DNA of 64,000 bases, taken from Escherichia coli. Its GTDB lineage: Bacteria > Pseudomonadota > Gammaproteobacteria > Enterobacterales > Enterobacteriaceae. A program made the position numbers and the translations under genes. This document shows, one piece after another, positions 1-22,126 of this stretch (within the stretch, counting starts at the first letter, position 1; the number at the start of each line of letters is the position of its first letter). The DNA lies in the NCBI RefSeq assembly GCF_048403405.1, contig NZ_CP183129.1, one strand, 5' to 3'. The notes below the pieces were generated by a model. It was given only the letters and a program-made list of their open reading frames with translations. It did not search any database and was not told the DNA's origin.

Positions 1-784
1 TTTTGCTTGAGTTGGCTAGTTTTCGGATGAAATCAATGTCATTACCTTTATAAAAAACAGCCTTTGTATCTGTAGATACTAGCCAGTTTCGCTCAACTGC
101 TTTCTGTTTATCAAGGCGATAAAGCATGCTGGTTTGTTCAAGGCCTAAATATACATCCCAACTAAGAAATACTTCGGTTTTCTTTTCTCGGCAAGCTATA
201 AAAAGAGTAGGAGTAACCGCTTCTCCAAATGGAGTTCTGATATAATCATCACTTTCTAACGATAAAATTACATTTTTCGAATCATCAATTGGCGATGTAG
301 TAATGGATGTGTGCCATTTTCCTACATCTGTGGCTTTCTCTAATTTTGATTCAGCTTGAGCGATTTTATCCTGTGGGAATAGTTTATCGTAGCAGTTTAG
401 TCTGGCTTCTTTATCATTTTCTGCACGACATTTAGATATCTCAGAAAGATTTGGTTGCTGAGCCTCTGTTGTTACTGGCTTTTCCGTTTTAGATTTTGAG
501 TTTACAGATGGAGTAAATGTTGGAGAAAAGAAACGATCATAACAAGATAAACGTCTATCATCATCTTTCTCATCAGGGCATTGATCTCTGCTTTCGAATT
601 TTTCAGCAACTTTCGTTCGAGTCGGTTGTATTGACTTATCGTAACAAGAAAGTCTGTCTTTATTATTTTCTATTGCTCGGCACTGGAGTACTGCATTGAA
701 GTTCTTATGTTCAGTTGCTGCTTGAACAGGCAGTACACTAATTGATATAAATGATGCACCTATAGAAAAAATTATATTTTTCAT
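1..784 (-). CDS. VasI/TagO-like secreted protein; N-terminus complete, C-terminus runs off the window
   Basis: Absent from the ORF track because there is no stop in the window. Read by hand on the minus strand from ATG 784-782, with no in-frame stop down to nt 2 (261 codons). MKNIIFSIGASFISISVLPVQAA is signal-peptide-like. There are three C..RL(S/N)CYD motifs, then GKWHTSITTSPIDDSKNVILSLES...TPTLFIACREKKTEVFLSWDVYLG, a pattern I recognise as the T6SS-associated VasI domain. The start lies 4 nt after the stop of the 789-1121 gene. Confidence 0.55.
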   Translation of the reverse strand, partial: MKNIIFSIGASFISISVLPVQAATEHKNFNAVLQCRAIENNKDRLSCYDKSIQPTRTKVAEKFESRDQCPDEKDDDRRLSCYDRFFSPTFTPSVNSKSKTEKPVTTEAQQPNLSEISKCRAENDKEARLNCYDKLFPQDKIAQAESKLEKATDVGKWHTSITTSPIDDSKNVILSLESDDYIRTPFGEAVTPTLFIACREKKTEVFLSWDVYLGLEQTSMLYRLDKQKAVERNWLVSTDTKAVFYKGNDIDFIRKLANSSK

Positions 785-788
785 TTTA

Positions 789-1121
789 TTATCCCTTTGG
801 TTTAGTAAGAAATACTAAAATTCCGATAATGATATCGCCAATAACCCATAAGCTTCCAATGGTAATTAAACCTAAGCCTGTACCAATAACTGCACCGGCT
901 TTTTCGGCATCGGATGTGGCATTATTTATTATTTCACTAGTGCCTCCTAGTCCAACTAAAAGCGTATAGATCATAAAAATATTAAATAATATAAAAACCC
1001 ACTTAATGATCCGTCCAAAAAATGAACGCTTAAGTTTTTGCAGTTGTTTACCACAAGCAGGGCAATACAATGCTGAATCGCTCACCTCTTTCTGGCATTC
1101 AGGACATTTGATTAATGCCAT
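789..1121 (-). CDS. zinc-ribbon membrane protein (CPEC...CPAC N-terminus plus hydrophobic helices)
   Basis: ORF track 110 aa. The N-terminus MALIKCPECQKEVSDSALYCPACGK is a 4-Cys zinc ribbon, followed by 2-3 hydrophobic segments. It is AT-rich and tightly coupled to the downstream VasI-like ORF. Confidence 0.7.
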   Translation of the reverse strand: MALIKCPECQKEVSDSALYCPACGKQLQKLKRSFFGRIIKWVFILFNIFMIYTLLVGLGGTSEIINNATSDAEKAGAVIGTGLGLITIGSLWVIGDIIIGILVFLTKPKG

Positions 1122-1383
1122 GTAATCCGCCTCCTTTGGATTAATACGAGTTGATATTTGTTACAAAACATTTTGATTTTATCAGATTTATTTTTATTGA
1201 TAAGTGTCAATTGATTAGCTGGTATAGAGTGAGGCATATAGAAGGGCTGGTCTGTATCAGTATGTGATGCAAAAATCCCACAGTTTCATGGAATTTTTGC
1301 ATTTAGAGCTGTGAGATAGGGTGCCTTATCGACCTTACCCTGGCAACCGATTGACGGGGGATTACTCCCCCGTCGCGGTTTCC

Positions 1384-1524
1384 TTACTGCTTACACTGTA
1401 AGAACGCCGCAAACTCCGCTCCCCAGAAGCTCATCCGTATTTCACACAGCGAACCGTGCAGCATCCAGATGATGAGGATTACCGTCACGCAGAACGTGAT
1501 GGCCGTAAGCGATTTTTGCGACAT
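1384..1524 (-). CDS. Hok/Gef-family type I toxin (46 aa)
   Basis: Below the ORF-track size cutoff. Hand translation gives MSQKSLTAITFCVTVILIIWMLHGSLCEIRMSFWGAEFAAFLQCKQ. It has a TM helix, then SLCEIR, then a G.EFAAF..C signature like Hok (SLCEIR...EVAAFMAYE). An AAGGAG lies 7 nt upstream of the ATG. A strong hairpin GACGGGGGA-GUAA-UCCCCCGUC at 1353-1374 follows the stop. Confidence 0.7.
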   Translation of the reverse strand: MSQKSLTAITFCVTVILIIWMLHGSLCEIRMSFWGAEFAAFLQCKQ

Positions 1525-1714
1525 AGCGCTTGCTCCTTTTTCGGGGAGGCGCTAACCTATCACTTGCTTAGGGTAGACGGTTAGGGCCTCGGTTAAACAA
1601 AAGTGTTTTCCGGGGCCTTTCCACATCCGGCCATCGGGTATTCCCTCCGACCATCAGCCGAAAGGCACCCGCGCGTAATCTATCGCTTTTTTGTTACTCC
1701 GGCAATTCTGCCTG

Positions 1715-1975
1715 TTAATTCTGAGGTAAAGGCAAACTCATCTGATTGTTTCCCCTGTGTGAAGCTGGCAGCTCATGCCACGGGATACCTTCTGAAGAGT
1801 GAACGCCGGAGGCGTGTTTTGATGTGAATTTATGGAAGGCTTCCAGTGTTGAGAAGCATACGCCGCATTCCAGATTGTTACACTGGTAATACTTTTGCCG
1901 CACGGTGTTTGAATCATTTTCCGGACGACTGGTGCGGATACGGGCAGATGCGCCACAAAGCGGACAACGGAACAT
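1715..1975 (-). CDS. ogr: Ogr/Delta-family zinc-finger late transcription activator
   Basis: MFRCPLCGASARIRTSR...YYQCNNLECGVCFST matches the P2 Ogr pattern (MFHCPLC...RTSR...YHQCQNVNCSATF). It sits next to gene D as in P2. Confidence 0.9.
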   Translation of the reverse strand: MFRCPLCGASARIRTSRPENDSNTVRQKYYQCNNLECGVCFSTLEAFHKFTSKHASGVHSSEGIPWHELPASHRGNNQMSLPLPQN

Positions 1976-2017
1976 AGCGACCTCCCTTAACGTGGTGCTG
2001 CCGCTATTCTAAGTTGC

Positions 2018-3127
2018 TCACTCTGTTTCCGCTATCCATTCCGGGATTTTTGCCTCAAGCTCAAGCTGCGTGGTAAAGCCGCTGTTATCAATAGTGTGCT
2101 CGGCTTTTGCAATGATCCAGTCCTGATTATCAATCTCGCTTTTAAATCCTGTTACCGTACCATGCATTTCGGGGTAGAGTTCTGCACGTCCACGCGCCAG
2201 CGTGATGGAGAATGATGCGGCTCCGCGTTGTAGTTGCTGCCACTTTGCCGCCGCTGCGCGTCTTGCTGCCTGTTCGTTCTGATAGGTCTTGCGTAACACA
2301 AACACATTGCCTTCCGCGCCTTCCATATAATCACCTTCACGGCTGCTGCTTTTCTCCTTTTGGGGTTTTGGTGGTTTGCGGCGTTTCACGCTGACTTTTT
2401 TCTTTTCCCCGTAATTAAGATCAAGCCAGTAGGCGCGTACCCCCGTATACGCCTCGCGGTCAGCAATACGGAACTGATGGCGATCGCCGCTGCTGCGTGT
2501 AATGGCGAACGAGGGCAACGGCTGGCCCTGTGCGTTCACGCCACCACCTGGCATGATGAATAACAGATTGCCGCTTTTTACCGTGGTGATTGCGCCCAGC
2601 ATTTCCGCCATGCGCGTAAGGAAGGACATGTCGCTTTCTTCGGTCTGGTCGGCGTGGTCGATTTCGATATCCATCAGCATTTCGCTGATTTGTGGTTTCA
2701 GACCATACCGATGAGCGATGGCGGATACCACACGCTCAACGGTCACATCATGCCAGGACACCTCACGTTTAACGTTAAATTCATCCCGAAAATCTGCGCT
2801 TCTGGCTGAAACAGTCAGCCTGTCCGGCGGTCCTTCGTGAGCGATTTCATCAACAATGTAAGTGCCTTTTTCTGTCAGCGGTTCTCCTTTCCAGCCAATG
2901 AGAACCGTCAGGCGCGCGCCCCGTGGCGGTAGCTGCAACTGACCATCCGCATCATCCAGCGTGATGGTGAGCTGGTCCGCCTCAAATCCCCGGTTGTCGG
3001 TCAGTGACAGGCTCATCAGGCGCTCTGCCACGCCTGACAGCGTTTTACCCTCCGCGAGAATATCAAAATCCGGCATTTTCACGGGGTCTGTGCCCTGACT
3101 GAGCAATTGCATGGTGGTGTCGGTCAT
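2018..3127 (-). CDS. D: tail protein gpD (late control D family)
   Basis: The ORF-track 413-aa frame was trimmed to ATG 3127, which is preceded by AGGGAGGGAACAG. The protein MTDTTMQLLSQGTDPVKMPDFDILAEGK... is the P2 D family. Confidence 0.88.
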   Translation of the reverse strand: MTDTTMQLLSQGTDPVKMPDFDILAEGKTLSGVAERLMSLSLTDNRGFEADQLTITLDDADGQLQLPPRGARLTVLIGWKGEPLTEKGTYIVDEIAHEGPPDRLTVSARSADFRDEFNVKREVSWHDVTVERVVSAIAHRYGLKPQISEMLMDIEIDHADQTEESDMSFLTRMAEMLGAITTVKSGNLLFIMPGGGVNAQGQPLPSFAITRSSGDRHQFRIADREAYTGVRAYWLDLNYGEKKKVSVKRRKPPKPQKEKSSSREGDYMEGAEGNVFVLRKTYQNEQAARRAAAAKWQQLQRGAASFSITLARGRAELYPEMHGTVTGFKSEIDNQDWIIAKAEHTIDNSGFTTQLELEAKIPEWIAETE

Positions 3128-3181
3128 CTGTTCCCTCCCTGTGCGGCATGGTCGCATGTGCGTGCGGAGGGGGTTACTGCT

Positions 3182-3207
3182 TTTTGTTGTCGCCGGGTCG
3201 GGAGAAC
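3182..3207 (+). promoter_or_regulatory. candidate late-promoter activator box TTTTGTTGT-N12-AGAAC upstream of FI
   Basis: The same 9-mer, N12 spacing and AGAAC recur upstream of terminase gene P (22101-22126). It resembles the TGT-N12-ACA Ogr site of P2 late promoters and is centred about 90 nt before the FI ATG. Confidence 0.3.
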
Positions 3208-3284
3208 GGCGCAGGGGTGAGATTACGCGCGTGGTGGGTGATGATTGTTGCCGAATCATTTAACGGATACAAGGGGCTGAAGCT

Positions 3285-4469
3285 ATGAGTGAAACTCGTT
3301 TTCATGGTGCCCGTGTTACGGAAAATACCGACCTGGTAACAGCGATTAACGATGTTGATTCCAGCGTTATCGGTATCGTGGCAACGGCGGATGATGCGGA
3401 CGCGAAGCTGTTCCCGCTGAATAAGCCCACACTGCTGACCCGCGTCAATGACGTGCTGGGAAAATGCGGGACAACGGGGACGCTTTATCGTGCGCTTAAG
3501 GCCATCGCAGACCAGGTGAGCACAAAGGTGATCGTCGTTCGCGTGGCTGAACACAAAGAAGAAGACGGAAAGACGCAGGATCAACTGGTTATCGGTGGTT
3601 CTGAGGATGACGGCAGCTATACGGGGATGTATGCGCTGCTTGTTGCAGAGCAGGATGAAAGCATCGGATACCGTCCGCGTATTCTGGCCGCGCCGGAGCT
3701 GGACACGGAGGCTGTAACAAAATCCCTGTGCGTGATTGCAGGTAAACTGCGCGCGTTTGTGTATGCCTCATGTCACGGCTGTAACACGATGGCTGAGGCG
3801 ATTACCTACCGCCAGAAATTCAACGAACGTGAGGTGATGCTCTTATGGCCGGACTTCATCGCCTACAACCCGAAAAGTGGCAAAAACGAAACGTTCCCCG
3901 CGCCTGCCTATGCGTGCGGCCTTCGTGCGTACATTGACCATGAGCAGGGCTGGCACAAATCGCTGTCCAACGTTCCGGTTAAAAATGTGCTGGGAATGTC
4001 CAGGCATGTGTTCTGGTCGTTGCAGGCCGAAGACAGCGATGCCAACAGCCTCAACAACAAAGAAATCACGACCATTATTCGTCGCAACGGGTTCCGCTTC
4101 TGGGGCAACCGCACACCGGAAACGAACGCCTACATCTTTGAGGTGTATACCCGAACCGCACAGGTGCTGGCTGATTCAATTGCGGAAGCGCAGTTTGAAA
4201 CCATCGACAGTCCACTGACACCTGCGAACGTGAAGGATGTTATCAGCGCCATCAGGGCAAAACTGGATTCGCTGGTTACTGCCGGGAAACTGATTGGTGT
4301 GGAGTGCTGGTATGACGTGGTGGATAACGGCACCACGAATTTACGTCAGGGACGTGTGCGTATTCGCTACAAATATACGCCTGTTCCCCCGCTGGAAGAC
4401 ATGGAGCTTTACCAGACGTTTACTGATGAATTCTTTGGTCCCGCATTTGCGGTGCTGGGAGGTGCCTGA
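3285..4469 (+). CDS. FI: contractile tail sheath protein
   Basis: ORF track 394 aa, P2 FI family. It is followed by the tube gene with a TGATG overlap. Confidence 0.95.
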   Translation: MSETRFHGARVTENTDLVTAINDVDSSVIGIVATADDADAKLFPLNKPTLLTRVNDVLGKCGTTGTLYRALKAIADQVSTKVIVVRVAEHKEEDGKTQDQLVIGGSEDDGSYTGMYALLVAEQDESIGYRPRILAAPELDTEAVTKSLCVIAGKLRAFVYASCHGCNTMAEAITYRQKFNEREVMLLWPDFIAYNPKSGKNETFPAPAYACGLRAYIDHEQGWHKSLSNVPVKNVLGMSRHVFWSLQAEDSDANSLNNKEITTIIRRNGFRFWGNRTPETNAYIFEVYTRTAQVLADSIAEAQFETIDSPLTPANVKDVISAIRAKLDSLVTAGKLIGVECWYDVVDNGTTNLRQGRVRIRYKYTPVPPLEDMELYQTFTDEFFGPAFAVLGGA

Positions 4470-4981
4470 TGGCTGTACCAAAACATCTTCGCTTTTTTAC
4501 GTTGTTTGTGGATGGTGAAAACGAAGTGGGTAAAGTGACATCCGTCACGCCGCCCAAACTGACGCGCAAAACCGACAGCTATCGTGGTGGTGGCATGATG
4601 GGGGCGGTAAGTATTGATCTCGGTCTGGACGACTCCGCGCTTGATGCGAGTTTTGTCATGGGGGGAGCTGTTCGTGCGCTGTTCCTTAAATATGGCGGCA
4701 CGATTGACGGCACGCTGCTGCGTTTTGCGGGTGAATACTACACCGATGCAGAAAGCGATCTGTATGAAATCGAGATGCGCGGGCGTGTGACGGAAATTGA
4801 TATGGGGGAAGCCAAACAGGGCGAAGCCACATCACACACTTACGCTGTCAAAAACACCTACTACAAGCTGAGCGTTAACGATCGCCCGCTGTGGGAAATC
4901 GACCTGTTGAACCACATCTACCGGAAGGACGGCAAGGACATTGTGCCTGACCGTATCCGTTCCGCGCTTGGGCTTGGCTGA
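4469..4981 (+). CDS. FII: tail tube protein
   Basis: ORF track 170 aa (MAVPKHLRFFTLFVDGENEVGKVTSVTPPKLTRKT...), P2 FII family. Confidence 0.95.
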   Translation: MAVPKHLRFFTLFVDGENEVGKVTSVTPPKLTRKTDSYRGGGMMGAVSIDLGLDDSALDASFVMGGAVRALFLKYGGTIDGTLLRFAGEYYTDAESDLYEIEMRGRVTEIDMGEAKQGEATSHTYAVKNTYYKLSVNDRPLWEIDLLNHIYRKDGKDIVPDRIRSALGLG

Positions 4982-5036
4982 TAAGTAATATGCAGGCGGC
5001 GCAGTGCGTCGCCTCTGACTGAAAAGGAGACAACTG

Positions 5037-5411
5037 ATGAAAGACATCGATACTGAAACCCGGAATAACACCGTGGCGGATGATGTGACGGCAGGTGAGG
5101 ATATGGCTGTCGAACGTGGCGTAAAACTGACCCGACCAATTGAGCGTGGTGGCGAAAAAATCACGTATGTGGAGATCACCGGGGCTATTGAGCAGGCTGG
5201 ATCCCTGCGTGGTCTGTCGCTGTCTGATGTGCTGAATCTGAAAGCGGATACCATGTTTACGCTGTTGCCTCGCGTGACCTCGCCACGACTGGATGAAGTG
5301 ATGATTAAAAAAATGTCGTCACGCGATTTTATTCAGTTGTGCGCTGTGGCTGTAAATTTTATGAGCGAGCCAGACTCTGGCGCGAAGAGCGTGCAGGAGA
5401 CGGCAGCGTAA
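5037..5411 (+). CDS. E: tail assembly chaperone gpE
   Basis: Position and size between the tube gene and the tape measure gene; ORF track 124 aa. Confidence 0.8.
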   Translation: MKDIDTETRNNTVADDVTAGEDMAVERGVKLTRPIERGGEKITYVEITGAIEQAGSLRGLSLSDVLNLKADTMFTLLPRVTSPRLDEVMIKKMSSRDFIQLCAVAVNFMSEPDSGAKSVQETAA

Positions 5412-5575
5412 TCACCCTGGTGTGCTTTGAGCACATCGAAGATCTGGTGGCGGATATTGCCGCCATTTTTAACTGGTCGCCCGCCGAAATCTTCATGATG
5501 ACGCCCGGCGAAGTGGTTAGCTGGCGCGAGCGGGCGGCACTTCGCAGCGGGAATGCAGATAATGAAGACTCTTGA
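5037..5575 (+). CDS. E+E': gpE+E' fusion made by programmed -1 frameshift on an A7 run (5307-5313)
   Basis: The -1 frame is open from 5309 to 5575 (ORF-track 5339..5575 is its tail). The slippery AAAAAAA lies in the E frame (AUU AAA AAA AUG). This is analogous to P2 E/E+E' and lambda G/GT. Confidence 0.6.
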
Positions 5576-8369
5576 TATCCGGGTCGCTTTCAGCGCCGTT
5601 GACAGGCTGACCCGGCCTGCCGAAAACGCCCGCCGCCTGATGGGGCAGTTTGGTGACTCCATCCAGCGAACGCAGGGGGCGATCAAAAATCTCGAGCGTC
5701 AGGCGCGTTCATTTGAGCGCGCCCGTGACGCTGTCAGTAAAGCGGATGCTGGCATCGTGAAAGCACGACGCCAGCTTAACGCCCTTAATCAGTTACAACG
5801 CACGGGTACAGTGCTCAGCGAAAAACAACAAAAGCTGATGCAGCAGTTAAGCACCCGGCTTGAACGCCTGAATGAATCGCGCACACGGGAAATTCAGAAA
5901 ATGCGGGAGCTTGGCGGAGAGCTGAAACGCCACGGCATTTCCCTGACAGGCAGCGATAACACCATCCAGCAGGCCATCAGACGCACCGAACAGTACAACA
6001 ACCAGCTTGAACGCGAACGGCAGGCGCTTGCGCGTGTAACGCGGGCGCGTGAGCGGTATTCGCGCGCGCAGGAAACAGCGGGAAAACTGAAAACAGGTGG
6101 TGCGCTGGCAATTGGTGCGGCAGCGGCGGGCGGCTATGCTGCCGGGCGTTTTTTGCAGCCTGCGATCGGGTTCGGCAAAGAGATGTCCCGCGTTCAGGCA
6201 CTGACGCGAATCGACCAGAACAGCCCGCAGTTTAAGGCGCTGCGTGAGCAGGCGTTAAAACTTGGCTCTGAAACGCAGTTCACCGCAGGCGATGCCGCCA
6301 GTGGACAGGCATTTCTTGCAATGGCTGGCTTCACTCCGCAGGCCATTCAGGCTGCGCTTCCCGGCGTGCTGAGCATGGCAACGGCTGGCGGTATGGATCT
6401 CGGCGAGACGGCAGATATTGGCTCAAATATCCTGACGCAGTTCGGCCTTTCTGCTGACCAGATGGACCGGGTCGGTGACACACTCACCGCAGCGTTTACC
6501 CGTACCAACACTGACCTTCGCGCACTGGGCGAAACCATGAAATATGCAGGTCCGGTGGCGGGTAAGCTGGGAATATCGCTGGAGCAGGCCGCAGCGATGG
6601 CTGGCGTGCTGGCGAATATGGGCATCAGAGGGAGTGATGCCGGGACGGCAATGCGTGCCAGCCTGGCTCGTCTGGCATCACCGCCAAAGGCGGCGGCAGA
6701 AGCTCTGAAAGAGCTGGGCGTGTCCGTCTCGGATGCCGGGGGCAAAATGCGCCCGATGGAGGATGTGCTGGCCGACCTTTATAAAGCCACCCGTAAATAC
6801 GGGGAAGTTGACCGGGTATCGTTCTTTAAGGACATTGCCGGAGAAGAGGCTTTCACATCGTTTATGGCGCTCGTTGATGCAGCGGGTGACGGTTCCTTAC
6901 CCAAACTGAGAAAAGAACTTGAAGGCGCGCGCGGTGAGGCTGAACGCACAGCAAAGGTTATGGCCAACAACCTTGACGGCGATCTGAAATCACTCGGCAG
7001 TGCATGGGAAGGGTTGCGCATCCGCATTGCAGATCTGATTGACGGTCCGCTGCGTTCTGTCACGCAGTGGCTCACGCGGGTGGTCTCAAAAGTGACGGCA
7101 CTGGCGCAGGCCCATCCGGCACTGACGCGCCAGTTACTGATAGCGGGAGGTGCACTGCTGGCGACAACAGCAACGGTTGGTTCGTTGTCTCTGGTTATTG
7201 GGGTGCTTCACGGGAAGCTGGCTACGTTACGTCTCGGTTTTTCTCTCCTGACCGGATCAATGAATGCTGTCAGGGGCCTGCCAGCACTATGGGGAATGGT
7301 GACGGGTTCCGTTTCTTTACTGGGAGGCGCTATCGGGGCGCTGATCAGTCCGGTTGGTCTTATCGTGGCTGCGCTTGCCGGAGCTGCCGTTCTTATCTGG
7401 AAATACTGGGATCCCATCAGGGCATTTTTTGCCGGGGTGTTCAGCGGGATTATGGAAAGGCTGACCCCGTTGCGCGAAACCTTTGAACGGTTTGGTCCTG
7501 TTTTTGACGCAATCGGAAGCGGGATCAGCCAGGTGTTTAACTGGTTTAAATCGCTGCTGTCACCGATGGAGTCCAGCAAGGAAACGCTGGATAAATGTAC
7601 CAGTGCTGGCGAGATATTCGGTAACGTTCTTGGCGGTGCGTTACAGCTTGTTCTGACACCTGCAAAAATGCTACTGGATACGCTGGCGTGGATACTTGAA
7701 AAACTTGGCGTCCTTCCGGATGAAGCGGAAAAGGCGCGCAAGAAAATCGAAGACGCACAGCGTGCGGCCATTCTTCAGGACAAGGTTGCCTTGCTTCAGG
7801 GGGACCTTGCGAAAATCAATCCGCCGAAGCCTGTGGAAAATGGCAATGGCACCGGAGGTGATAAACCCAAAGACAACAAACCGCTCACAGACAGCAATAC
7901 CGGGACGCTACGCAGACTCAGCAAAATTGCTGATAACACAGGTAAGCTGGTTGATGAGACGAAAAAACGCATTGGCCCTGGCGATATTGTCTTTAAGAAC
8001 CTGCCCCGCGCACTTGCTGTTCGTGGGGAGTGGCAGGAGCGGAAGATTGCGCAGGTCAGTAAGCCTGCCCCCGCAATTAATATCACACCCGTAGTCCCGG
8101 CTCCGCTGCCTCCGGCGCTGGTCCCTGTTGTTGCGGCCAGCTCCCGCCCGGTGGCGGAGGCCATACGATCGCCAGTGGCATCAGTTCCTGCAGCTTCCCG
8201 TAATCGGGAGCCTGCTGTCTCCAGATTTGGCGGTGAAATTCATGTTCATCTGCATAACGTTGTTACGCAGAATCCCCGCGAACTGGCGAAACTGGTCGGT
8301 GAAATGGTCAGGGCAGAGATGGAACGGCGCGCCCGTGCCGGACGTGGCAGTTTTTACGATAAAGATTGA
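5553..8369 (+). CDS. T: tail tape measure protein
   Basis: ORF track 938 aa with coiled-coil and Gly/Ala-rich hydrophobic segments, in the position after E/E'. The start could be ATG 5562. Confidence 0.9.
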   Translation: MQIMKTLDIRVAFSAVDRLTRPAENARRLMGQFGDSIQRTQGAIKNLERQARSFERARDAVSKADAGIVKARRQLNALNQLQRTGTVLSEKQQKLMQQLSTRLERLNESRTREIQKMRELGGELKRHGISLTGSDNTIQQAIRRTEQYNNQLERERQALARVTRARERYSRAQETAGKLKTGGALAIGAAAAGGYAAGRFLQPAIGFGKEMSRVQALTRIDQNSPQFKALREQALKLGSETQFTAGDAASGQAFLAMAGFTPQAIQAALPGVLSMATAGGMDLGETADIGSNILTQFGLSADQMDRVGDTLTAAFTRTNTDLRALGETMKYAGPVAGKLGISLEQAAAMAGVLANMGIRGSDAGTAMRASLARLASPPKAAAEALKELGVSVSDAGGKMRPMEDVLADLYKATRKYGEVDRVSFFKDIAGEEAFTSFMALVDAAGDGSLPKLRKELEGARGEAERTAKVMANNLDGDLKSLGSAWEGLRIRIADLIDGPLRSVTQWLTRVVSKVTALAQAHPALTRQLLIAGGALLATTATVGSLSLVIGVLHGKLATLRLGFSLLTGSMNAVRGLPALWGMVTGSVSLLGGAIGALISPVGLIVAALAGAAVLIWKYWDPIRAFFAGVFSGIMERLTPLRETFERFGPVFDAIGSGISQVFNWFKSLLSPMESSKETLDKCTSAGEIFGNVLGGALQLVLTPAKMLLDTLAWILEKLGVLPDEAEKARKKIEDAQRAAILQDKVALLQGDLAKINPPKPVENGNGTGGDKPKDNKPLTDSNTGTLRRLSKIADNTGKLVDETKKRIGPGDIVFKNLPRALAVRGEWQERKIAQVSKPAPAINITPVVPAPLPPALVPVVAASSRPVAEAIRSPVASVPAASRNREPAVSRFGGEIHVHLHNVVTQNPRELAKLVGEMVRAEMERRARAGRGSFYDKD

Positions 8370-8375
8370 GGAGTC

Positions 8376-8870
8376 ATGGTCATGATGATGATCTACGGCA
8401 TGTTTGTTTTTGAGCTGCGCACACTGCCGCATCAGCAGTTACAGCAAAACAAAAGCTGGCGGCATGTGAAAAATGAACGCGTTAACCGTTCAGCAAGCTG
8501 GCAGTATATAGGTGCAGGTGATGATCGCATTGTGCTTTCCGGCGTGCTTTATCCTGAAATTACAGGTGGCGAAGTGTCGCTTTCGTTGCTGACCACGCAG
8601 GCATATACAGGACGCCCCTGGCCTCTGATTGATGGTGTCGGGCAGATTTACGGCATGTATGTGCTGACTGAAACGAATACGACCCGTTCCGAGTTTGATC
8701 GCTACGGTAAGGCGAAAAAGATAGAATTTTCACTGACCCTTGAACGCTGTGATGAGGATTTGCGGGAGCGCCTGCAATCCTCATCATTCAGCGATATGCT
8801 GTCCGGCTTCAAAGATAAGGTGACATCATCTCTTAACAGCGCGGCCAGTTCAGTTAAAGGGCTGTTCTGA
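8376..8870 (+). CDS. U: tail protein gpU
   Basis: MVMMMIYGMFVFELRTLPHQQLQQNKSWRH... resembles P2 U. ORF track 164 aa. Confidence 0.9.
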   Translation: MVMMMIYGMFVFELRTLPHQQLQQNKSWRHVKNERVNRSASWQYIGAGDDRIVLSGVLYPEITGGEVSLSLLTTQAYTGRPWPLIDGVGQIYGMYVLTETNTTRSEFDRYGKAKKIEFSLTLERCDEDLRERLQSSSFSDMLSGFKDKVTSSLNSAASSVKGLF

Positions 8871-8875
8871 TTTAA

Positions 8876-8913
8876 CACAAAAACCGCTAATGGTCAGATT
8901 AGCGGTTATTTTG
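8876..8913. terminator. bidirectional intrinsic terminator between convergent U and invertase
   Basis: The stem AACCGCTAA/TTAGCGGTT (8882-8890 / 8899-8907) is flanked by an A-run on the left and TTATTTT on the right. Confidence 0.6.
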
Positions 8914-9493
8914 TTTCCTGACTCTTCTCTATTGTTCCGATTGATTCTCCTGCGGGGTGGTAACGATAAATCGTCGATATACCAATGCCGTAAATTATTG
9001 CCAGTTGTTTTCTGTCGTGCCCGTTTTTGATCAGCCTTGCTATTTGCTCATGCTGTTCTTTTGTCAGCTTCGGTCGACGTCCGCCTGTGCGCCCCCGTGC
9101 GCGTGCTGCCGCCAGTCCGGCCAGTGTACGTTCAACAATTAATTCACGTTCCATTTCAGCCAGGGCACCCATCACGTGGAAGAAAAAACGCCCCATTGGA
9201 GAAGATGTATCTATGCTGTCGGTCAGACTGCGAAAATTAATTCCTCGCTCCCGTAGTTCCCCGACGAGAGAAATCAGATGTTTCATGCTTCGCCCGAGGC
9301 GATCCAGTTTCCAGACAACCAGCGTGTCACCTTTTTGAAGGCGCTTTAAAGCGCGTTTTAATCCCGGTCGGTCTGTCTTTGTCCCGCTTAATTTATCTTC
9401 AAATATTTGTTCACATCCTGCACAAACAAGAGCGTTTCGTTGCAGGTCTGTATTCTGGTCATTTGTTGATACCCTTACATAGCCAATCAGCAC
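8906..9493 (-). CDS. serine DNA invertase (Gin/Pin/Cin/Hin family)
   Basis: Nearly colinear with Mu Gin as I remember it (LIGYVRVSTNDQNTDLQRNALVCAGCEQIFEDKLSGT.TDRPGLKRALKRLQKGDTLVVWKLDRLGRSMKHLISLVGELRERGINFRSLTDSIDTSSPMGRFFFHVMGALAEMERELI). The likely start is GTG 9493 rather than the ORF-track TTG 9511. Confidence 0.95.
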   Translation of the reverse strand: MLIGYVRVSTNDQNTDLQRNALVCAGCEQIFEDKLSGTKTDRPGLKRALKRLQKGDTLVVWKLDRLGRSMKHLISLVGELRERGINFRSLTDSIDTSSPMGRFFFHVMGALAEMERELIVERTLAGLAAARARGRTGGRRPKLTKEQHEQIARLIKNGHDRKQLAIIYGIGISTIYRYHPAGESIGTIEKSQETK

Positions 9494-9547
9494 GCTGAAT
9501 CTCCCGTCCAAAAGCGCAAATCATGCCATGCAGGCCGGAAACGGCCA

Positions 9548-9573
9548 TTATCTAAAACCTCGGTTTACAGGAA
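9548..9573. repeat. gix/cix-like crossover site (left)
   Basis: The reverse complement of TTATCTAAAACCTCGGTTTACAGGAA is TTCCTGTAAACCGAGGTTTTAGATAA, close to Mu gix. A 25-bp exact inverted repeat links 9557-9581 with 12612-12636. Confidence 0.85.
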
Positions 9574-10581
9574 ACGGTAAACAAGGCTGGTAACGCCGTC
9601 CAAAAGACAGGCGATATCTTGTCCGGTGGGCTTACTTTTGAAAACGACTCAATCCTTGCCTGGATTCGGAATACTGACTGGGCAAAGATTGGTTTTAAAA
9701 ATGATGCCGACAGCGATACTGATTCATACATGTGGTTTGAAACAGGCGACAACGGCAATGAATATTTCAAATGGAGAAGCAAACAAAGCACCACAACAAA
9801 AGACCTGATGAATCTTAAATGGGATGCTTTGTCTGTTCTTGTTAAAGCCCTTTTCAGCAGTGAAGTAAAAATATCGACAGTCAATGCACTGAGGATATTT
9901 AATTCATCTTTTGGTGCTATTTTTCGCCGTTCTGAAGAATGCCTGCATATCATCCCGACACGAGAGAATGAGGGAGAAAATGGTGATATAGGGCCACTAC
10001 GCCCCTTTACGCTTAATCTCAGAACTGGTCGGATAAGCATGGGGCATGGTCTTGATGTTACAGGGGATATATTTGCAAACCGTTTTGCAATTAACAGTAG
10101 TACCGGCATGTGGATTCATATGCGTGACCAGAATGTTATTTTGGGACGCAATGCGGTATCCACCGATGGTGCACAGGCATTACTTCGTCAGGACCATGCT
10201 GATCGCAAATTTATGATTGGTGGGCTGGGAAATAAGCAATTTGGCATCTACATGATTAATAACTCAAGGACAGCTAATGGCACCGATGGTCAGGCGTACA
10301 TGGATAATAACGGGAACTGGCTTTGCGGTTCGCAAGTTATTCCCGGCAACTATGGCAATTTTGATTCCAGATATGTGAAAGATGTTCGACTTGGTTCACA
10401 GCAATATTATGGAGTGAACAACTGGCAAACATGGAATTTCCAGTGCCCGTCAGGTCATGTATTGTCTGGTATTAATGTTCAGGATACAGGGTCCAACTCT
10501 GCCGATAATATAGCGGGCGTTTATTACAGACCCGTTCAAAAGTATATAAATGGCACCTGGTATAATATAGCGAGCGTTTAA
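9556..10581 (+). CDS. promoterless alternative tail-fibre C-terminal cassette (Sv'-like), expressed only after inversion
   Basis: The frame is open from the stop at 9553 and reads [15 protein letters not shown]... The LGLQETVN at the crossover is identical to H (..[14 protein letters not shown]..). Both cassettes end ...INGTWYN(A/I)(G/A)S(I/V). Confidence 0.8.
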
Positions 10582-10582
10582 T

Positions 10583-11110
10583 ATGATGCACTTAAAGAAC
10601 ATAAAAGCGGGTAATGCTAAAACACTGGAACAGTATGAGTTAACAAAGAAGCACGGAGTCATCTGGCTTTACTCTGAGGACGAAAAAAACTGGTATGAGG
10701 AAGTGAAAAACTTTCAGCCAGACACCATAAAGATTGTTTACGATGCAAATAATATTATTGTCGCCATCACTAAAGATGCCTCCACGCTTAACCCTGAAGG
10801 TTTTAGCGTCGTTGAGGTTCCAGATATTACAGCCAACCGCCGCGCTGATGATTCAGGAAAGTGGATGTTTAAGGATGGAGCTGTAGTTAAACGGATTTAT
10901 ACGGCAGACGAACAGCAACAACAGGCCGAATCACAAAAGGCCGCATTGCTTTCCGAAGCTGAATCAGTCATCCAGCCGCTGGAACGCGCTGTCAGGCTGA
11001 ATATGGCAACAGACGAGGAACGCACACGACTGGAAGCATGGGAACGCTACAGTGTTCTGGTCAGCCGTGTGGATACGGCAAATCCTGAATGGCCACAAAA
11101 GCCTGAATAA
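10583..11110 (+). CDS. alternative tail fibre assembly chaperone (G'/U'-like)
   Basis: [40 protein letters not shown]... is paralogous to the 11139-11672 product (Tfa family). Confidence 0.85.
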
Positions 11111-11115
11111 AAATT

Positions 11116-11135
11116 AAGGCCCGCTATCGGGCCTT
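11116..11135. terminator. hairpin between convergent G' and G
   Basis: AAGGCCCG-CTAT-CGGGCCTT perfect stem. Confidence 0.5.
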
Positions 11136-11138
11136 GTC

Positions 11139-11672
11139 TCATTCAGGTTGTTCGGGAAATGTTACTGGCAGGCTGGAGGTGTCTGTAGATTCGACTTTCT
11201 GCGCATAGAGCATCCACTCGGTTAATTTTGGTTTATTCTCGTCGGAAATGATGCCCAGCCGTAGCTGTGAGTCCCATAGCTGGGTTTTATCCCTGACAAG
11301 TTGCAACAGGCTTTGCTTTTCATTTTCCGCCTGCTGCCTCTGCTCTTCCTCGGTATAAGTTCGCTTTACCACTACGCCATCTTTGAACATCCATTTACCC
11401 GAAATGTCAGCACGGCGATTTGCTGTAATATCAGGTAATTCAACGACGCTTGCGCCTTCCGGATTAATTGCTGAAACATCCTTTTCAATACAAATAATAA
11501 CGCCGTTATGGTCATAGACCATTTTTAAAGTGTCTGGCTGGAAATTCTTTTGTTCCTCATACCAGTTTTTTCCATCCTCTGAATAAAGCCATTTGATGTT
11601 AAATTGTTTCGTTAGCTGGTATTGCTCTTTTGTTTTAGGGTTGCCAGCAGTAATGTTTTTTAAGTGCATCAT
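11139..11672 (-). CDS. G: tail fibre assembly chaperone
   Basis: ORF track 177 aa, [40 protein letters not shown], directly downstream of H. Confidence 0.9.
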
Positions 11673-11674
11673 CG

Positions 11675-13777
11675 TTAAATACTCCCCGCGTTATACCACG
11701 TCCCATTAATGCAATACTGAATTGGCCTTGCCTGAGTTGTATCAATTAATTCATCACGGTTTCCGTTAACTGAACCCGTAACGACATAACCTGACCTGTC
11801 AGACCAGCCGGGACCATTCCATGTCTGAACAGATGACAGACCGCCAAGGCGAATACCTGTAATAAACCTTGAGTTACATTCTGCCTGCGTGTATGCACCA
11901 ACATCTCCCGCTGAGGGTTTGCGGGTCGTGGTGTAAAACTCTGACCAGTCAGCTTCAAAGCCATAACCATCACGCGCTGAACGATAAAAAATGCCGCCGT
12001 TCCTGTAATTCACGCGGAACTGTACAGCAGGGCAACTCCCCGCATTCATATTGAAATGAAGAATTAACGTTGATGCGCCGGTGATTCTGGCGCAATAAAC
12101 TCCGCTGTTCCAGTTCCAGCCAACAGCTTTATCATTTCCGACAGTGCTTCCTGTTTGCCCTAAAGCAAATGCAGGTTGTTGATTTTTCGTGTTGTAGTCT
12201 CGTCGCCAGCCAGGAGCGTAAGCATCACCATGATTGATATAAGTGAATTGAGCGTTAGTAATTCCGCCACCGCTGGACGTGCTCGGCGTGGTAACGCGTA
12301 TGGTCATTGCGCCGCGAGTGCCAATAACTTCCACCACAGCACCTGCAAGACAAATATTTCCGCAACCTGTATCTGTAATGACCTTATTATTTGCATAAGC
12401 CCATGAGCCTTTGCACATCCAGTAAGGATGGTTAAATGCTCCCTGACTCTCCAGCCACGAAATAAATTGCGCGGTTGTCCAGACCTGACTATCGCCACCA
12501 ATATTCAGCCATGCGCTATATGCGCGGCAGGCACCAATATTTTTGGTGAAGGTATCTTTTCCTGGAATATCTGCGCCGTTCTGGTTTTTCTGTAATGCGC
12601 CAGAAGCCTGATTTACCGTTTCCTGTAAACCGAGGTATTCGATAACGGCAGCAACGGTCGATTTCGCAAGAATATCCCGCCCGACTTTTGTCAGGGTTGC
12701 CAGGCTGGCGACATCATTCCCCGTAAAATACGGAAACCTGTCTGCCGCAGTAGCAAGCCCGGCCAGCGCCGTCAGGGTGGCATCTTTCGGTTGCTTACCC
12801 GCAAGCGCTTTAGTCATGGTGGTCGCAAAATTCGGGTCGTTTCCCAGCGCCGCCGCTAACTCGTTCAACGTATTCAGTGCGTCAGGCGACGAGTCTACAA
12901 GTGCGGCAATCGCGGCCATCACATAAGCCGTGCTTGCGATCTGAGTATTATTAGTCCCTTTTGGCGCAGTTGGCGTTGTTGGCGTTCCGGTCAGTGCAGG
13001 ACTATTTAAGGGCGCTTTCTTGTTCGTTTCATCCATTACCGCCTTAACCGCTTTTGGCGTCGCAGCCAGCGTTTCAGATGTGCTGTTGGTGGCGCTACTG
13101 AGCTGAACTATCCCTTTTCGCGCAGTGGTAGCGTCCTGTGCGGTGTATTTGCCATTAGCCAGGTCATATGCCGCCTTAACAGCCTTTGGCGTTGCCGCAA
13201 GCGTTTCAGACGTGCTGTTAGTGGCGCTGCTAAGTTGAACAAAGCCTTTTGCGGTCAGCGAGGCGTCCGGGTGACGTCGTGAGTGTTCATGCTCTTTCAG
13301 TTTGTCATCCACGTAATCCACTGTGGCCATCACCATGGTGTTATCCACGGTAAGCGCCACGGTGGCAGTGCTGGATACGGTCAGAATGGTGCGAAATGTT
13401 TGTGCACGTCCTGACCCTTCGGCAACGGCTGGCTTGTAACTTTCGGCAGTATTGCCTACTGCGATTAAATCGCCGTGCTCATCAAACACACCAATTTCCC
13501 GGATCCAGAATCCGCCCGTTTCTGGAGGAATAACCAGCTCCGCAATAATGCGGTTCTGATGTGTTGCGTCCAGTATGACGCGATTAACAGTGTGTCGCCA
13601 CACCTCATGCACCAGACGGGTCTGCTTACTGTCTGGTGTGGGCAACGTGCCGCCACCGTCGCCCACGGCCATATGAGTCAGGCGGACAGGCTTACCATCT
13701 GGCGCGGCTGCCTGAGCTAATTTTTTTGCACCCGTATCGGTGATAACGGTTTTAAATTTTCGTGTTGTGGTACTCAT
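11675..13777 (-). CDS. H: tail fibre protein (constant N-part fused to the currently active variable C-part)
   Basis: ORF track 700 aa with P2 H-like N-terminus and phage fibre repeats. The crossover site lies inside the gene at 12620-12645. Confidence 0.9.
12620..12645. repeat. gix/cix-like crossover site (right, inside H)
   Basis: TTCCTGTAAACCGAGGTATTCGATAA, the inverted partner of 9548-9573. Confidence 0.85.
13041..13240 (-). repeat. tandem ~68-bp repeat pair inside H encoding (G)[24 protein letters not shown] twice
   Basis: 13041-13108 and 13173-13240 are near-identical by eye. This is the typical phage tail fibre repeat. Confidence 0.7.
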
Positions 13778-15553: not shown

Positions 15554-16131
15554 TGCGGGCCTCCTGTCGAATCGCTGCCACCTTTAACGCCACCGTGCTT
15601 ATGCGTATGCACTGTGATGCCGTTTGAGGTGAAGTTGCCGCCGCTGTGCGTGATATTGCCGCTCATCTTTCCCCCTTTTGTGACGTCAAGCGTCGCTGTT
15701 CTCAGAAGGTTTGTGCATTCCACGACGGGCGTATCCAGTGTCACGCTGACGGATGCCTGCAGGGTGGCTGTTTTCATGCCGCTGGCGCTCAGTGCGCCTG
15801 CGTCTGCGTCGTAGCGGAACACCGCGCCATCCGGCGCGCTGACCACGATTTCTTTCAGGCTTTTGCCGGGGGCCGGACTGGCATCACTCCACAGGCTGCC
15901 AATTATCATGGCGGTTTCCGGGTTGCCGCCAATGCAGGCAATTACCACCTGTTCGCCTGGTGATGGCGGCAGCCACACATTGAAGGCTCCCGCGCGCGTG
16001 GTGTTCCAGCGCAACCAGCCTGTTTCCAGTTCGCCGCTGCGAACGCGCACGCGCCAGGACTTCTCATCAACTTCAGAGATGATCCCGGTGCGGATGATAT
16101 TACTCAGCAGTCGCATGAGTTCTGCGCTCAC
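15550..16131 (-). CDS. V: baseplate spike/assembly protein gpV
   Basis: ORF track 193 aa, MSAELMRLLSNIIRTGIISEVDEKSWRVRVRSGELETGWLRW..., P2 V family. Confidence 0.9.
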   Translation of the reverse strand: MSAELMRLLSNIIRTGIISEVDEKSWRVRVRSGELETGWLRWNTTRAGAFNVWLPPSPGEQVVIACIGGNPETAMIIGSLWSDASPAPGKSLKEIVVSAPDGAVFRYDADAGALSASGMKTATLQASVSVTLDTPVVECTNLLRTATLDVTKGGKMSGNITHSGGNFTSNGITVHTHKHGGVKGGSDSTGGPQ

Positions 16132-16772
16132 CGTACAGCCTCCGCAATCCGGCCCAGCACCGTGTTATAAATCAGGCGCTCATCTGCCTGGCTGATACCC
16201 AGCAGCTCACGTACCGGGTAATCGGTGAAAATGCCCGGCGCAACCTGATCGCGCTCACCGAACTGATGAACGCGGGCAATACGTGCGGCCACGCCGCTGT
16301 AACCCACCGTCACACCGGAAGCATCTGCACGGGCTTTCAGGTAGCGGGCGGTGCGCAGTTTTACGAACATGGGGACGCGCTTTGTGCTGTCCTGGTTGAT
16401 GCGCCGGGTGCGTATTTCCAGAAAACGGTCGATGTCATCCCGGTAAAACGTGCGGATATTGTTTTTATCCTCATCCCACCCGGTAATGGTTCGCCCGTAT
16501 TTCCCCGTGTCGTGATGCCAGTTTTTCAGCGTGCGTGCTTCGTTATTCCAGATAAAGCGAATGCGTTCCTGTATCCGGGTTACGCGGCGTCTGCGTGGTG
16601 TCCACGCGGTCCCGTCCGGCGCTTTCTGTGACCGGATACGCGCCTGCTGGGCGCGGCGTAAATCCTGTGCCAGCTTTCTGGCGATGTTATTGATGGCCTG
16701 CTGATTCAGGCTGTCGCGGATGGCCTCAAAGGTTTCATCCACGCGTGTGAATGCCTTATCCATCGCTTTCAC
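16128..16772 (-). CDS. S: tail completion / virion morphogenesis protein gpS (longer than P2 S)
   Basis: Contains ..QQARIRSQKAPDGTAWTPRR.. and ..IARVHQFGERD.. like P2 S (QQQRIMAQKAPDGTPYAPRK, IASVHQFG), with an internal insertion. Confidence 0.85.
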   Translation of the reverse strand: MKAMDKAFTRVDETFEAIRDSLNQQAINNIARKLAQDLRRAQQARIRSQKAPDGTAWTPRRRRVTRIQERIRFIWNNEARTLKNWHHDTGKYGRTITGWDEDKNNIRTFYRDDIDRFLEIRTRRINQDSTKRVPMFVKLRTARYLKARADASGVTVGYSGVAARIARVHQFGERDQVAPGIFTDYPVRELLGISQADERLIYNTVLGRIAEAVR

Positions 16773-17223
16773 CCCACGTCACATCCTGGAATACATGCGA
16801 CCAGTCGCCTTCGGAAGATGGCAGGCGGGGTTTTGGCTCCGGCAGGTGTTCTGCCTGCGGTGTGCCCTGACTGCTGCGCGTGATGCGAACGCGTTCCCGC
16901 AGGGGGAGCGTAAACAGGAGATCGGCGCTGTCATCGTCATTGATAACGGCGGAGAATTTGATGTCCTGATTACGCTCCGGATTGAGCAACAACTGTGGCT
17001 GATTTTCGGATAACCACGCCAGCAGCGGCAGCGTGAGGTCGTCCAGCTCCCCGGCGTAATCCATGACAAACATCACCATCTGATAGCGGTAAACAAACGA
17101 GGGCGTTTCTCCGGTCGTTTCAATGTTGCCGCTCTCCACGAAAATGGTGAATTTTTCCGGGTTGGCCTGACACCATCGGCATGAACGGGTCATGGCTTCA
17201 CGCAGGGAATCAGTTTTCAGCAT
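16756..17223 (-). CDS. R: tail completion protein gpR
   Basis: ORF track 155 aa, position after the lysis genes. Confidence 0.85.
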   Translation of the reverse strand: MLKTDSLREAMTRSCRWCQANPEKFTIFVESGNIETTGETPSFVYRYQMVMFVMDYAGELDDLTLPLLAWLSENQPQLLLNPERNQDIKFSAVINDDDSADLLFTLPLRERVRITRSSQGTPQAEHLPEPKPRLPSSEGDWSHVFQDVTWGESDG

Positions 17224-21197: not shown

Positions 21198-22034
21198 TCA
21201 GAAGTCAGCCAGTTGATCGGAGGCTGCGCCTGTTGCGGTGAACCGGTTCTGCGGATCGCCGTCCTGCGTGCGCAGTTTTTCCTTCAGTGCTGTCAGCTCT
21301 GTGGTCAGTAAAGTGATTTTCTGGCTGTCCTGCTGATGGCGGGTTTCCAGCGCATTAAAACGGTCGATAATGTCGGCCTGTGACGTTGCGACACCTTCCA
21401 CCGCTTCCTGAATACGGGAGAAACTGGCGTCATCCGCTTTGCGGCCACGGCCAATAATCCCCATAACGCGGTTAAACCACTGGGTGCCTTCTTCCTGACG
21501 TTGTTCGGTGAGTTCGATAAGTTCTGACTCCATAGCGGCGGTAAACATCGCCACGTCTCCCTGCTGACAGTTGAATGTCATCAGTTGCATACGTTGTTGT
21601 GCCGCAAAGGCCAGACGTTCCGTGCCCAGGCTGGCGGGGGTGTCGGTCATTGCCAGCCCGCGCAGGTAAGGGCCTCCCGTGATGGTTGACTGTGGTTCCA
21701 GCTCAATACTGGAGTAAATTTTTTTACCATCGTTAAGCAGGGACATCATGCGAGCGGTCGGCTCAATTTCGGCATACAGTGCCGTGCGACCTGCCAGCGG
21801 GCCATCGGTTATGTCTTCGGTGCTCAACCCCACAACATCGCCCATAGCGGAAAACTCGCTACCGGGGAGTGGTGACAGGATGTGCTCAATATTCACACGT
21901 GCACCATAAACGGACGGGTTATAACTGGTGGCGGCAGCTTTCAGCATGTCGCCGTTGATTTCGCGCCCGTCTGCCGTTACACCGGAGACAGCCACGCGAA
22001 ACTTTTTGCGGGATGTCTTTTTTTCATTAGCCAT
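21198..22034 (-). CDS. O: capsid scaffold protein gpO
   Basis: Trimmed to ATG 22034 (MANEKKTSRKKFRVAVSGVTADGREI..), which parallels P2 O (MAKKVSKFFRIGVEGDTCDGRVI..). Confidence 0.9.
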   Translation of the reverse strand: MANEKKTSRKKFRVAVSGVTADGREINGDMLKAAATSYNPSVYGARVNIEHILSPLPGSEFSAMGDVVGLSTEDITDGPLAGRTALYAEIEPTARMMSLLNDGKKIYSSIELEPQSTITGGPYLRGLAMTDTPASLGTERLAFAAQQRMQLMTFNCQQGDVAMFTAAMESELIELTEQRQEEGTQWFNRVMGIIGRGRKADDASFSRIQEAVEGVATSQADIIDRFNALETRHQQDSQKITLLTTELTALKEKLRTQDGDPQNRFTATGAASDQLADF

Positions 22035-22100: not shown

Positions 22101-22126
22101 TTTTGTTGTAAGAAAACAGTCAGAAC
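22101..22126 (+). promoter_or_regulatory. candidate late-promoter activator box TTTTGTTGT-N12-AGAAC in the O/P divergent region
   Basis: Same motif as 3182-3207, centred about 73 nt before the P ATG. Confidence 0.3.

Follow-up and report, generated by a model that had tools for sequence, protein, structure and literature searches.

A fixed inversion of the FI-U tail genes and a putative shared late promoter for D and FI in a P88-like prophage of Escherichia coli

In phage P2, the tail genes from FI to D belong to one operon that, in the words of the P2 record, "encodes FI, FII, E, E', T, U, D", followed by ogr; the initial annotation of the DNA studied here had given this canonical order, with D as the last gene of the F operon, correctly. 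The DNA is a stretch of 64,000 nucleotides (nt) from the E. coli contig NZ_CP183129.1 (assembly GCF_048403405.1), referred to below as the window. It holds a P2-like prophage in which the block from the tail sheath gene FI to the tail gene U (FI-U) runs opposite to D, the gene of the baseplate hub. This raises the question of whether D has been stranded by a lesion or an assembly error, or whether the inverted order is normal for a lineage of phages, and, if so, from where D is transcribed.

Tail gene order in the window

The open reading frame (ORF) map, the raw sequence, and Pfam searches agree with the layout drawn in the initial annotation: in place of the co-directional single-operon order FI-FII-E-T-U-D, FI-FII-E/E'-T-U (3285-8870) lies on the plus strand, and the minus strand carries ogr, D, an invertase gene, G, and H. 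The genes on either side of the D-FI spacer are as follows.

1715-1975, minus strand: ogr, Ogr/Delta zinc-finger late activator (Pfam PF04606 Ogr_Delta, E = 5e-14; translation starts MFRCPLCG)
2018-3127, minus strand: D, baseplate hub or late control D protein, 369 amino acids (aa), intact (Pfam Phage_GPD)
3285-4469, plus strand: FI, tail sheath (Pfam Phage_sheath_1, Gp18_domIII_N, and Phage_sheath_1C; 45% identical to P2 FI)
4469-4981, plus strand: FII, tail tube (Pfam Phage_tube, E = 2e-45)
5037-5411, plus strand: E, tail assembly chaperone (Pfam Phage_TAC_7, E = 4.7e-4, under the curated cutoff)
5354-5360, plus strand: candidate slippery heptamer A_AAT_TTT of E/E'
ending at 5575, plus strand: E', tail assembly chaperone in the -1 frame, encoding ...ADIAAIFNWSPAEIF...WRERAALRSGN and homologous to P2 E'
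5553-8369, plus strand: T, tape measure protein (Pfam PhageMin_Tail, E = 4e-58)
8376-8870, plus strand: U, tail protein (Pfam Phage_P2_GpU, E = 6e-39)

The P2-like tail module is complete, comprising sheath, tube, E/E' with a -1 frameshift, tape measure, U, D, and Ogr, and all tail ORFs of the window are full length. D is 99% identical over residues 1-369 to D of Xuanwuvirus P884B11. It starts at the ATG at 3127, which is preceded by a GGGAGGG ribosome-binding site, so the D-FI spacer comprises 3128-3284 and is 157 bp long, the extent given to it in the initial annotation. The extension of D to 3259 in the program-made ORF list was rejected; it is not conserved in relatives, because their spacer lengths differ by non-multiples of three. 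On the other side of D, ogr lies 42 bp downstream.

Phages and E. coli genomes with the same arrangement

Window positions 1500-9568 match P88, Xuanwuvirus P884B11, and Citrobacter phage phiSM as one colinear piece with 95.8-97.8% identity (95.8% for P88, taken over 1500-9588, and about 98% for phiSM), and the gene strands in the P88 and phiSM annotations agree with those of the window. Colinear matches at 95-98% were also obtained with 520873, 503458, 500465-2, PhiR44_2, and Chuche, those with 520873 and 503458 being longer. Farther along, window positions 12001-37000 are colinear at 95-97% with PhiR44_2, phiSM, and P88 (for P88, 95.7% identity over 76%), and the D and FI-U ORFs are 97-100% identical to their phiSM counterparts. 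P88, phiSM, and P884B11 share with the window the order ogr-D, FI-U, invertase, most of the remaining prophage, and an essentially identical 157-bp spacer; they differ from it in the variable parts of the tail fibers and in some cargo genes, and the window copy is an integrated prophage adjoining flk on the E. coli chromosome. High identity and colinearity with the type phage P88 extend across most of the genome, as in members of Xuanwuvirus, and the window carries an apparently intact P88-like prophage that belongs to this genus (Peduoviridae).

Two of these relatives are known as infectious phages. P88, which was induced from E. coli K88, is a plaque former whose head and tail look normal under the electron microscope (PMC5285337); phiSM is a fully functional temperate phage that is released spontaneously, forms plaques, and lysogenizes E. 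coli K-12 (PMC6456863). According to the initial annotation, the order would be a lineage trait if close relatives had it and produced infectious phage with a mapped D promoter; P88 and phiSM bear out the part concerning order and infectivity, and the D promoter is a predicted one (see below).

Among 5426 complete E. coli genomes, 1357 contain the whole junction of D and FI (window 2800-3600), with an identity of at least 95% in nearly all of them. A synthetic canonical junction, composed of the last 400 nt of U and the first 400 nt of D, was searched for as well; of the 1413 genomes with these genes, 0 span it.

The annotation of D in public genomes deserves a remark. In E. coli CRE1540 (NZ_CP019051, locus 3719-4572, equivalent to window 2018-2871), RefSeq/PGAP presents D as a 266-aa "VgrG/Pvc8 family" coding sequence plus a pseudogene fragment, and many E. 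coli genomes are annotated likewise. Because the D sequence of CRE1540 is identical to the intact ORF of the window, the short annotation is not evidence of decay; such a split could, however, mislead automated scoring of prophage intactness.

Age and spread of the inverted order

An alignment of D from the window, SEN5, two Klebsiella phages, and P2 was used to fetch 80 loci from bacterial assemblies with one genome per species, and gene order in these loci was established by tblastn with the window proteins; the counts that follow leave out the window itself and two loci fetched later. Where D is at least 61% identical to that of the window, the inverted order (H and G, then U, T, FII, and FI on the opposite strand, then D and ogr) was found in 66 of 66 loci, whereas all 20 classifiable loci with D at or below 53% identity, P2 among them, have the canonical order. 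The hosts of the inverted order include Salmonella, Edwardsiella, Serratia, Erwinia, Pantoea, Enterobacter, Klebsiella, Kosakonia, Pectobacterium, Brenneria, Xenorhabdus, Photorhabdus, Providencia, Morganella, Hafnia, and Yersinia, and the phages concerned fall into at least four Peduoviridae genera: Xuanwuvirus, Senquatrovirus (SEN5), Reginaelenavirus (Kp4871-3), and Reipivirus (Kp4847-1). SEN4 and SEN5 (Senquatrovirus) and the Klebsiella phages of Reginaelenavirus and Reipivirus resemble the window in their inverted FI-U block and in a spacer of 147-157 bp with a conserved dyad and mirrored hexamers, although their proteins are only 53-72% identical to those of the window and their dyads are exact TGT-N12-ACA or have other right halves; unlike the window, SEN5 has no invertase between G and U.

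The outgroups phiCTX and Mannheimia phage PHL101 have the canonical order, which is therefore taken as ancestral. Identity to the P2 proteins is 45% for FI, 42% for FII, 46% for U, 50% for D, and 54% for J, and within the clade the divergence of FI, FII, and U keeps step with that of D. FI, FII, and U have diverged from P2 about as much as D and J, which fits a block inverted in place rather than one acquired as a foreign module. We conclude that a single old inversion of FI-FII-E/E'-T-U has become fixed as the normal arrangement in a large clade of P2-like Enterobacterales phages. Among the readings offered in the initial annotation, that of a lineage with a separate D/ogr transcription unit is the one supported, both by the order in the 66 loci and by a conserved promoter-like element directed toward D, which is described next.

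A conserved dyad with mirrored -10-like elements between D and FI

The late-promoter-like box toward FI that the initial annotation had seen in the spacer is indeed present. The same annotation had found no convincing promoter for D; comparison among relatives corrects this, revealing a conserved -10-like hexamer directed toward D. The elements are as follows.

3185-3207, both strands: Ogr-type activator dyad TGTTGT-N12-AGAAC (core TGT-N12-AGA at 3188-3205; center 3196.5)
3240-3245, plus strand: GATGAT, -10 element of the predicted FI promoter (PF), with a predicted start at about 3252 and a 33-nt leader
3148-3153, minus strand: GACCAT (ATGGTC on the plus strand), -10 element of the predicted D promoter ("PD"), with a predicted start at about 3141 and a 14-nt leader that includes the ribosome-binding site

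The window of 64 kb contains exactly two copies of TGTTGT-N12-AGAAC, one in the D-FI spacer and one in the spacer between O and P, against 0.05 copies expected, and no third copy was found in the window with one mismatch allowed. Of the 67 inverted loci, 62 have TGT-N12-A[CG]A at 75-88 nt upstream of the FI ATG, and the exact form TGT-N12-ACA is found in SEN5, Kp4871-3, and many others. When the spacers of four genera are aligned, conservation is poor overall, the dyad and one hexamer on each side being kept. Both hexamers of the window lie 43.5-48.5 nt from the dyad center in mirrored positions, which are those of -12 to -7 for starts placed at +/-55.5 nt from the center. The hexamers in the four genera are as follows.

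Window: GATGAT on the FI side, GACCAT on the D side
SEN5: AATGAT on the FI side, GACGAT on the D side
Kp4871-3: GATGAT on the FI side, AACCAT on the D side
Kp4847-1: GAATAT on the FI side, AATCAT on the D side

A conservation profile was computed from 33 non-redundant spacers anchored on the dyad center. Its information content is mirror-symmetric, with nA..AT peaks of 1.7-1.8 bits on the FI side and 1.2-1.6 bits on the D side over a background of 0.1-0.4 bits, and the best -10-like hexamer stands exactly at -12 in 27 of the 33 spacers on the FI side and in 22 on the D side. In canonical-order relatives, which serve as the negative control, the FI-side hexamer is conserved and the mirrored D-side hexamer is not. 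At the level of sequence, the spacer has the form of a shared-site bidirectional promoter, with one dyad equidistant from two divergent -10 elements; it also combines a TGT-N12-ACA-type dyad upstream with an encoded cognate Ogr/Delta zinc-finger activator, as an Ogr-dependent promoter would.

The D side of the spacer also holds a strongly conserved GC-rich block between the putative -10 element and the dyad (3155-3167, GCATGTGCGTGCG in the window; consensus CACGCGCGCG). The FI side lacks such a block, which may act as a discriminator-like or regulatory element.

The divergent promoters of P2 and the O-P spacer

Late transcription of the P2 type needs Ogr and the alpha subunit of RNA polymerase, and P2 has four late promoters that depend on Ogr. 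The P2 record annotates one activator-binding site (P2 3057-3087) for the divergent promoters PP and PO, whose start sites (P2 3016 and 3127) lie 55.5 nt on either side of the dyad that we placed within this site. The P2 sites read GTTGT-N12-CCAAC at PF, GTTGT-N12-CCATC at PP/PO, and GTTGT-N12-CAAAT at PV. Strict matching to the published activator consensus TGT-N12-ACA (PMC3931495) was rejected, as it misses these annotated sites of P2 itself (CCA, CAA), and because of this failure the P2-annotated sites and the O-P site of the prophage were taken as references. In phage Smp131, PP' and PO' have likewise been described on the same 18-bp site (PMC3931495).

The second dyad of the window provides an internal comparison.

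22104-22126, both strands: second activator dyad, in the divergent O-P spacer

The O start listed by the program (22067) lacks a ribosome-binding site and lies only 48.5 nt from this dyad. We reassigned the start to the ATG at 22034, which follows GAGGGG and yields an N terminus, MANEKK, that aligns with MAKK of P2 gpO. With this start, the O-P spacer is 154 bp long and has mirrored hexamers, TAATCT toward P and CATCAT toward O, in the same geometry as the D-FI spacer. Elsewhere in the prophage, S (16756-17223) overlaps V (16128-16772). Because of this overlap and because the activator motif occurs only twice, the phage seems to be without a separate PV promoter, unlike P2, which has a PV site; the genes from O through G may be transcribed as a single, very long late operon.

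P2 (Peduovirus) has the same genes as the window, with 42-54% protein identity, and shares with it an Ogr homologue, a dyad upstream of FI, the order of D followed by ogr, a -10 element for ogr after D, and the E/E' frameshift. In P2, however, FI to U, D, and ogr are co-directional, whereas D of the window diverges from FI. The PP/PO pair of P2 is the counterpart in design of the D-FI spacer: each has one dyad midway in a divergent spacer of 150-175 bp, starts at about 55.5 nt on each side (annotated in P2, predicted here), and -10-like hexamers with no good -35 element. The D-FI pair differs from PP/PO in that it would control the tail genes D and FI and arose by inversion. By analogy with PP/PO, we infer that its two hexamers belong to promoters, that these depend on Ogr, and that they start at the positions given above.

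Proposed expression of D

Upstream of D, a minus-strand gene, there is only FI-U in antisense orientation, so the D promoter must lie in or near the spacer in viable phages, and because the design of the spacer matches the shared PP/PO site of P2, D probably has its own late promoter there. We propose that the inversion set the FI late promoter region beside the 5' end of D in divergent orientation and that the single dyad would activate both PF and PD; one dyad is proposed for two promoters because an Ogr-type site is dyadic and a single P2 site is annotated for PP and PO. D would be transcribed late as a short unit of its own, running on into ogr, and transcription of FI-U would end at a two-way terminator beyond U (8882-8907). 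In this model ogr would retain its own -10 element just after the D stop codon.

2006-2011, minus strand: -10-like hexamer TAGAAT directly after the D stop codon, likely ogr-specific promoter element

An equivalent hexamer (CATAAT, TATAAT, TATACT, or TACAAT) stands at the same place in most of the inverted-clade loci listed, and the P2 record annotates -35 and -10 elements of ogr between D and ogr. ogr thus probably keeps its own promoter and would receive read-through from the D transcript in addition. With regard to a terminator after ogr, a fold of 1650-1720 (minus strand) gave no significant structure (z = +1.0). In two inverted-clade loci, one on a contig labeled Vagococcus (98% identical to an E. 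coli phage) and the other in Providencia vermicola, the gap between D and ogr is enlarged to about 1.4-1.5 kb by an AT-rich insert, which suggests that this gap is a hotspot for cargo insertion.

Taken as a whole, an old and fixed inversion with a shared-dyad bidirectional late promoter serving D and FI is in our view the likely explanation of the locus, and D is probably not orphaned. Several points weigh against it. The promoter model is built on conserved sequence and on analogy. A scan of 1400-9700 found no sigma-70 consensus promoter in the spacer; this is expected of activator dependence, and such a scan is uninformative for activator-dependent promoters, but it leaves the model without independent support from that side. 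The right half of the window dyad is AGA and not ACA, a one-base mismatch, though the sites of P2 deviate too (CCA and CAA). On the D side, the predicted leader is short (14 nt), the hexamers are weak -10 matches (GACCAT, AACCAT), the best hexamer is shifted by 1-3 nt in 11 of the 33 relatives, and the conserved block CACGCGCGCG finds no explanation in the model.

A wider proposal is possible and is put forward tentatively: the whole P2 late program would be condensed into two bidirectional Ogr nodes, at the O-P and D-FI spacers, with one dyad each, driving P-Q, O through G, FI-U, and D-ogr, and the inversion would have been tolerated or selected because it gave a short Ogr-activated D-ogr unit and uncoupled D from sheath and tube. 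If this is true, the D-ogr unit would form a tighter positive-feedback loop on the activator, and D, the hub protein, would have its dosage and timing set apart from those of the very abundant sheath and tube proteins.

The terminator, the invertase, and the invertible tail fiber segment

U converges on a gene for a serine DNA invertase, and the presence of a recombinase at one end of the inverted block calls for a description of its likely substrate. The features of this region are as follows.

8882-8907, both strands: core stem (10 pairs, 6-nt loop) of a bidirectional intrinsic terminator where U and the invertase gene converge, found by a pattern scan on both strands, each with a T-rich tail
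8906-9511, minus strand: Gin/Cin/Pin-type serine DNA invertase (Pfam Resolvase and HTH_7; DNA invertase in the P88 and phiSM annotations)
9554-12639, both strands: invertible tail fiber segment of about 3.1 kb, with inverted gix/cix-like sites at its ends
11139-11672, minus strand: G, tail fiber assembly
11675-13777, minus strand: H, tail fiber

The folding energies of the terminator are -16.1 and -15.7 kcal/mol (z-scores, -3.4 and -3.3), and its right arm overlaps the invertase stop codon. A two-way terminator where U meets the invertase, placed at 8876-8913 in the initial annotation, is thus confirmed. The invertase probably starts at the GTG at 9493.

The gix/cix-like sites, TTCCTGTAAACCGAGGTTTT, lie at 9554-9573 (minus strand) and 12620-12639 (plus strand), with 0 and 1 mismatch; they are the only two gix-like matches in the whole window, against 0.00 expected, and both bound the tail fiber segment. 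This segment shares 90-94% identity with the G segment of Mu and the C segments of P1 and P7; it contains the C terminus of H, two tail fiber assembly genes, and an alternative fiber C terminus (9619-10581, plus strand). The Mu G, P1 C, and P7 C systems with Gin or Cin resemble it in having inverted gix-like sites beside an invertase; they flip tail fiber C termini and are unrelated to the fixed FI-U inversion. The substrate of the invertase is the tail fiber segment and not FI-U. Flipping of FI-U by the invertase was rejected because gix-like sites are found only at the ends of the tail fiber segment; FI-U has no crossover sites at its ends and a single orientation among close relatives. No inverted repeats joining the ends of the FI-U block of about 5.6-5.7 kb (3128-3284 versus 8871-8915) were found. 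A 15-nt repeat pair (3119-3133 and 11827-11841) was also considered as a recombination substrate and dismissed, being short and unrelated to the breakpoints. Nor is an invertase needed for the inverted order, as only some of the inverted loci carry one.

Alternative explanations

The initial annotation had considered that the inversion might be a lesion that cut the essential gene D off from its operon, F, and left the prophage unable to make tails, or else an error of assembly. It is true that the F operon no longer lies upstream of D, and the shortened coding sequence with a pseudogene fragment in CRE1540 could be misread as decay. Yet plaque-forming, tailed P88 and functional phiSM have the same order, which is fixed across 66 diverged loci, and the ORFs of D and FI-U are full length and nearly those of phiSM, D of CRE1540 being identical to the intact ORF; a tail defect as a consequence of the arrangement is thereby refuted. 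Still less credence can be given to the orientation being an assembly artifact or one state of a switch in which the invertase flips the block of about 5.7 kb; this reading is refuted as well. Inversions are a known type of misassembly and the serine invertase gene abuts one breakpoint, but the junction recurs in 1357 complete genomes and in several independently sequenced phages and the alternative in 0 of 1413, no inverted repeat links the ends of the block, the two gix-like sites (9554 and 12620) flank the tail fiber segment, and most members of the inverted clade, SEN5 for example, are without an invertase.

The alternative that deserves more attention accepts the fixed inversion and gives D a promoter of its own, in the spacer or the first bases of FI, that is independent of the Ogr dyad and is constitutive, middle, or controlled by the CACGCGCGCG block. 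It would give a role to that block, which the shared site leaves unexplained, and it would fit the weakness of the D-side hexamers as -10 matches; moreover, ogr lies downstream of D and must precede the late genes, which makes an Ogr-independent D-ogr transcript conceivable. Against an independent promoter, the spacer scan found no sigma-70 consensus promoter, and the D-side element is kept at the exact mirror distance across diverged genera, a constraint that an unrelated promoter would not need. In addition, ogr has its own conserved -10 element after the D stop codon, and P2 has a single annotated activator site between its divergent PP and PO promoters. We consider an independent D promoter unlikely and retain the shared dyad as the explanation for the expression of D.

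Novelty and implications

The arrangement itself is not new, because the gene order is visible in the published annotated genomes of viable phages. In the literature searched, no paper was found that had described the inversion or a D promoter before, and the SEN4/SEN5 paper does not mention inversion or gene order. Transcriptomic data on BTP5 were considered as evidence and set aside, as this is a different, 186-like prophage and uninformative here. What may be new is a second bidirectional Ogr node in the style of PP/PO, made by inversion, which would vary the late transcription plan of P2 across the clade; it would be a modest regulatory variant and no new class of mechanism. The model predicts a fifth Ogr-dependent promoter.

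For the annotation of prophages, a D gene that diverges from the neighboring sheath gene is to be regarded as normal in a very common prophage family, which about a quarter of complete E. coli genomes carry. To score this order as a rearrangement, a defect, or a misassembly would be wrong. The gene order can serve as a clade marker that splits the P2-like phages of the Enterobacterales at about 55-60% identity of the D protein. On the mechanistic side, a dyad-symmetric activator site would let a large inversion be tolerated, since the displaced promoter region can act in both directions and serve a stranded essential gene.

Other features of the prophage

A terminator-like hairpin lies within the E' frame, between E and T (5445-5465, plus strand), with a 9-bp stem followed by TTTTTAACTG. 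Beyond ogr, the end of the prophage (window 1-1523; CRE1540 locus 1592-3225) carries cargo that includes a TagO-like "type VI secretion-associated" protein, a zinc-ribbon protein (789-1121, minus strand), and a Hok/Gef toxin gene (about 1384-1524, minus strand).

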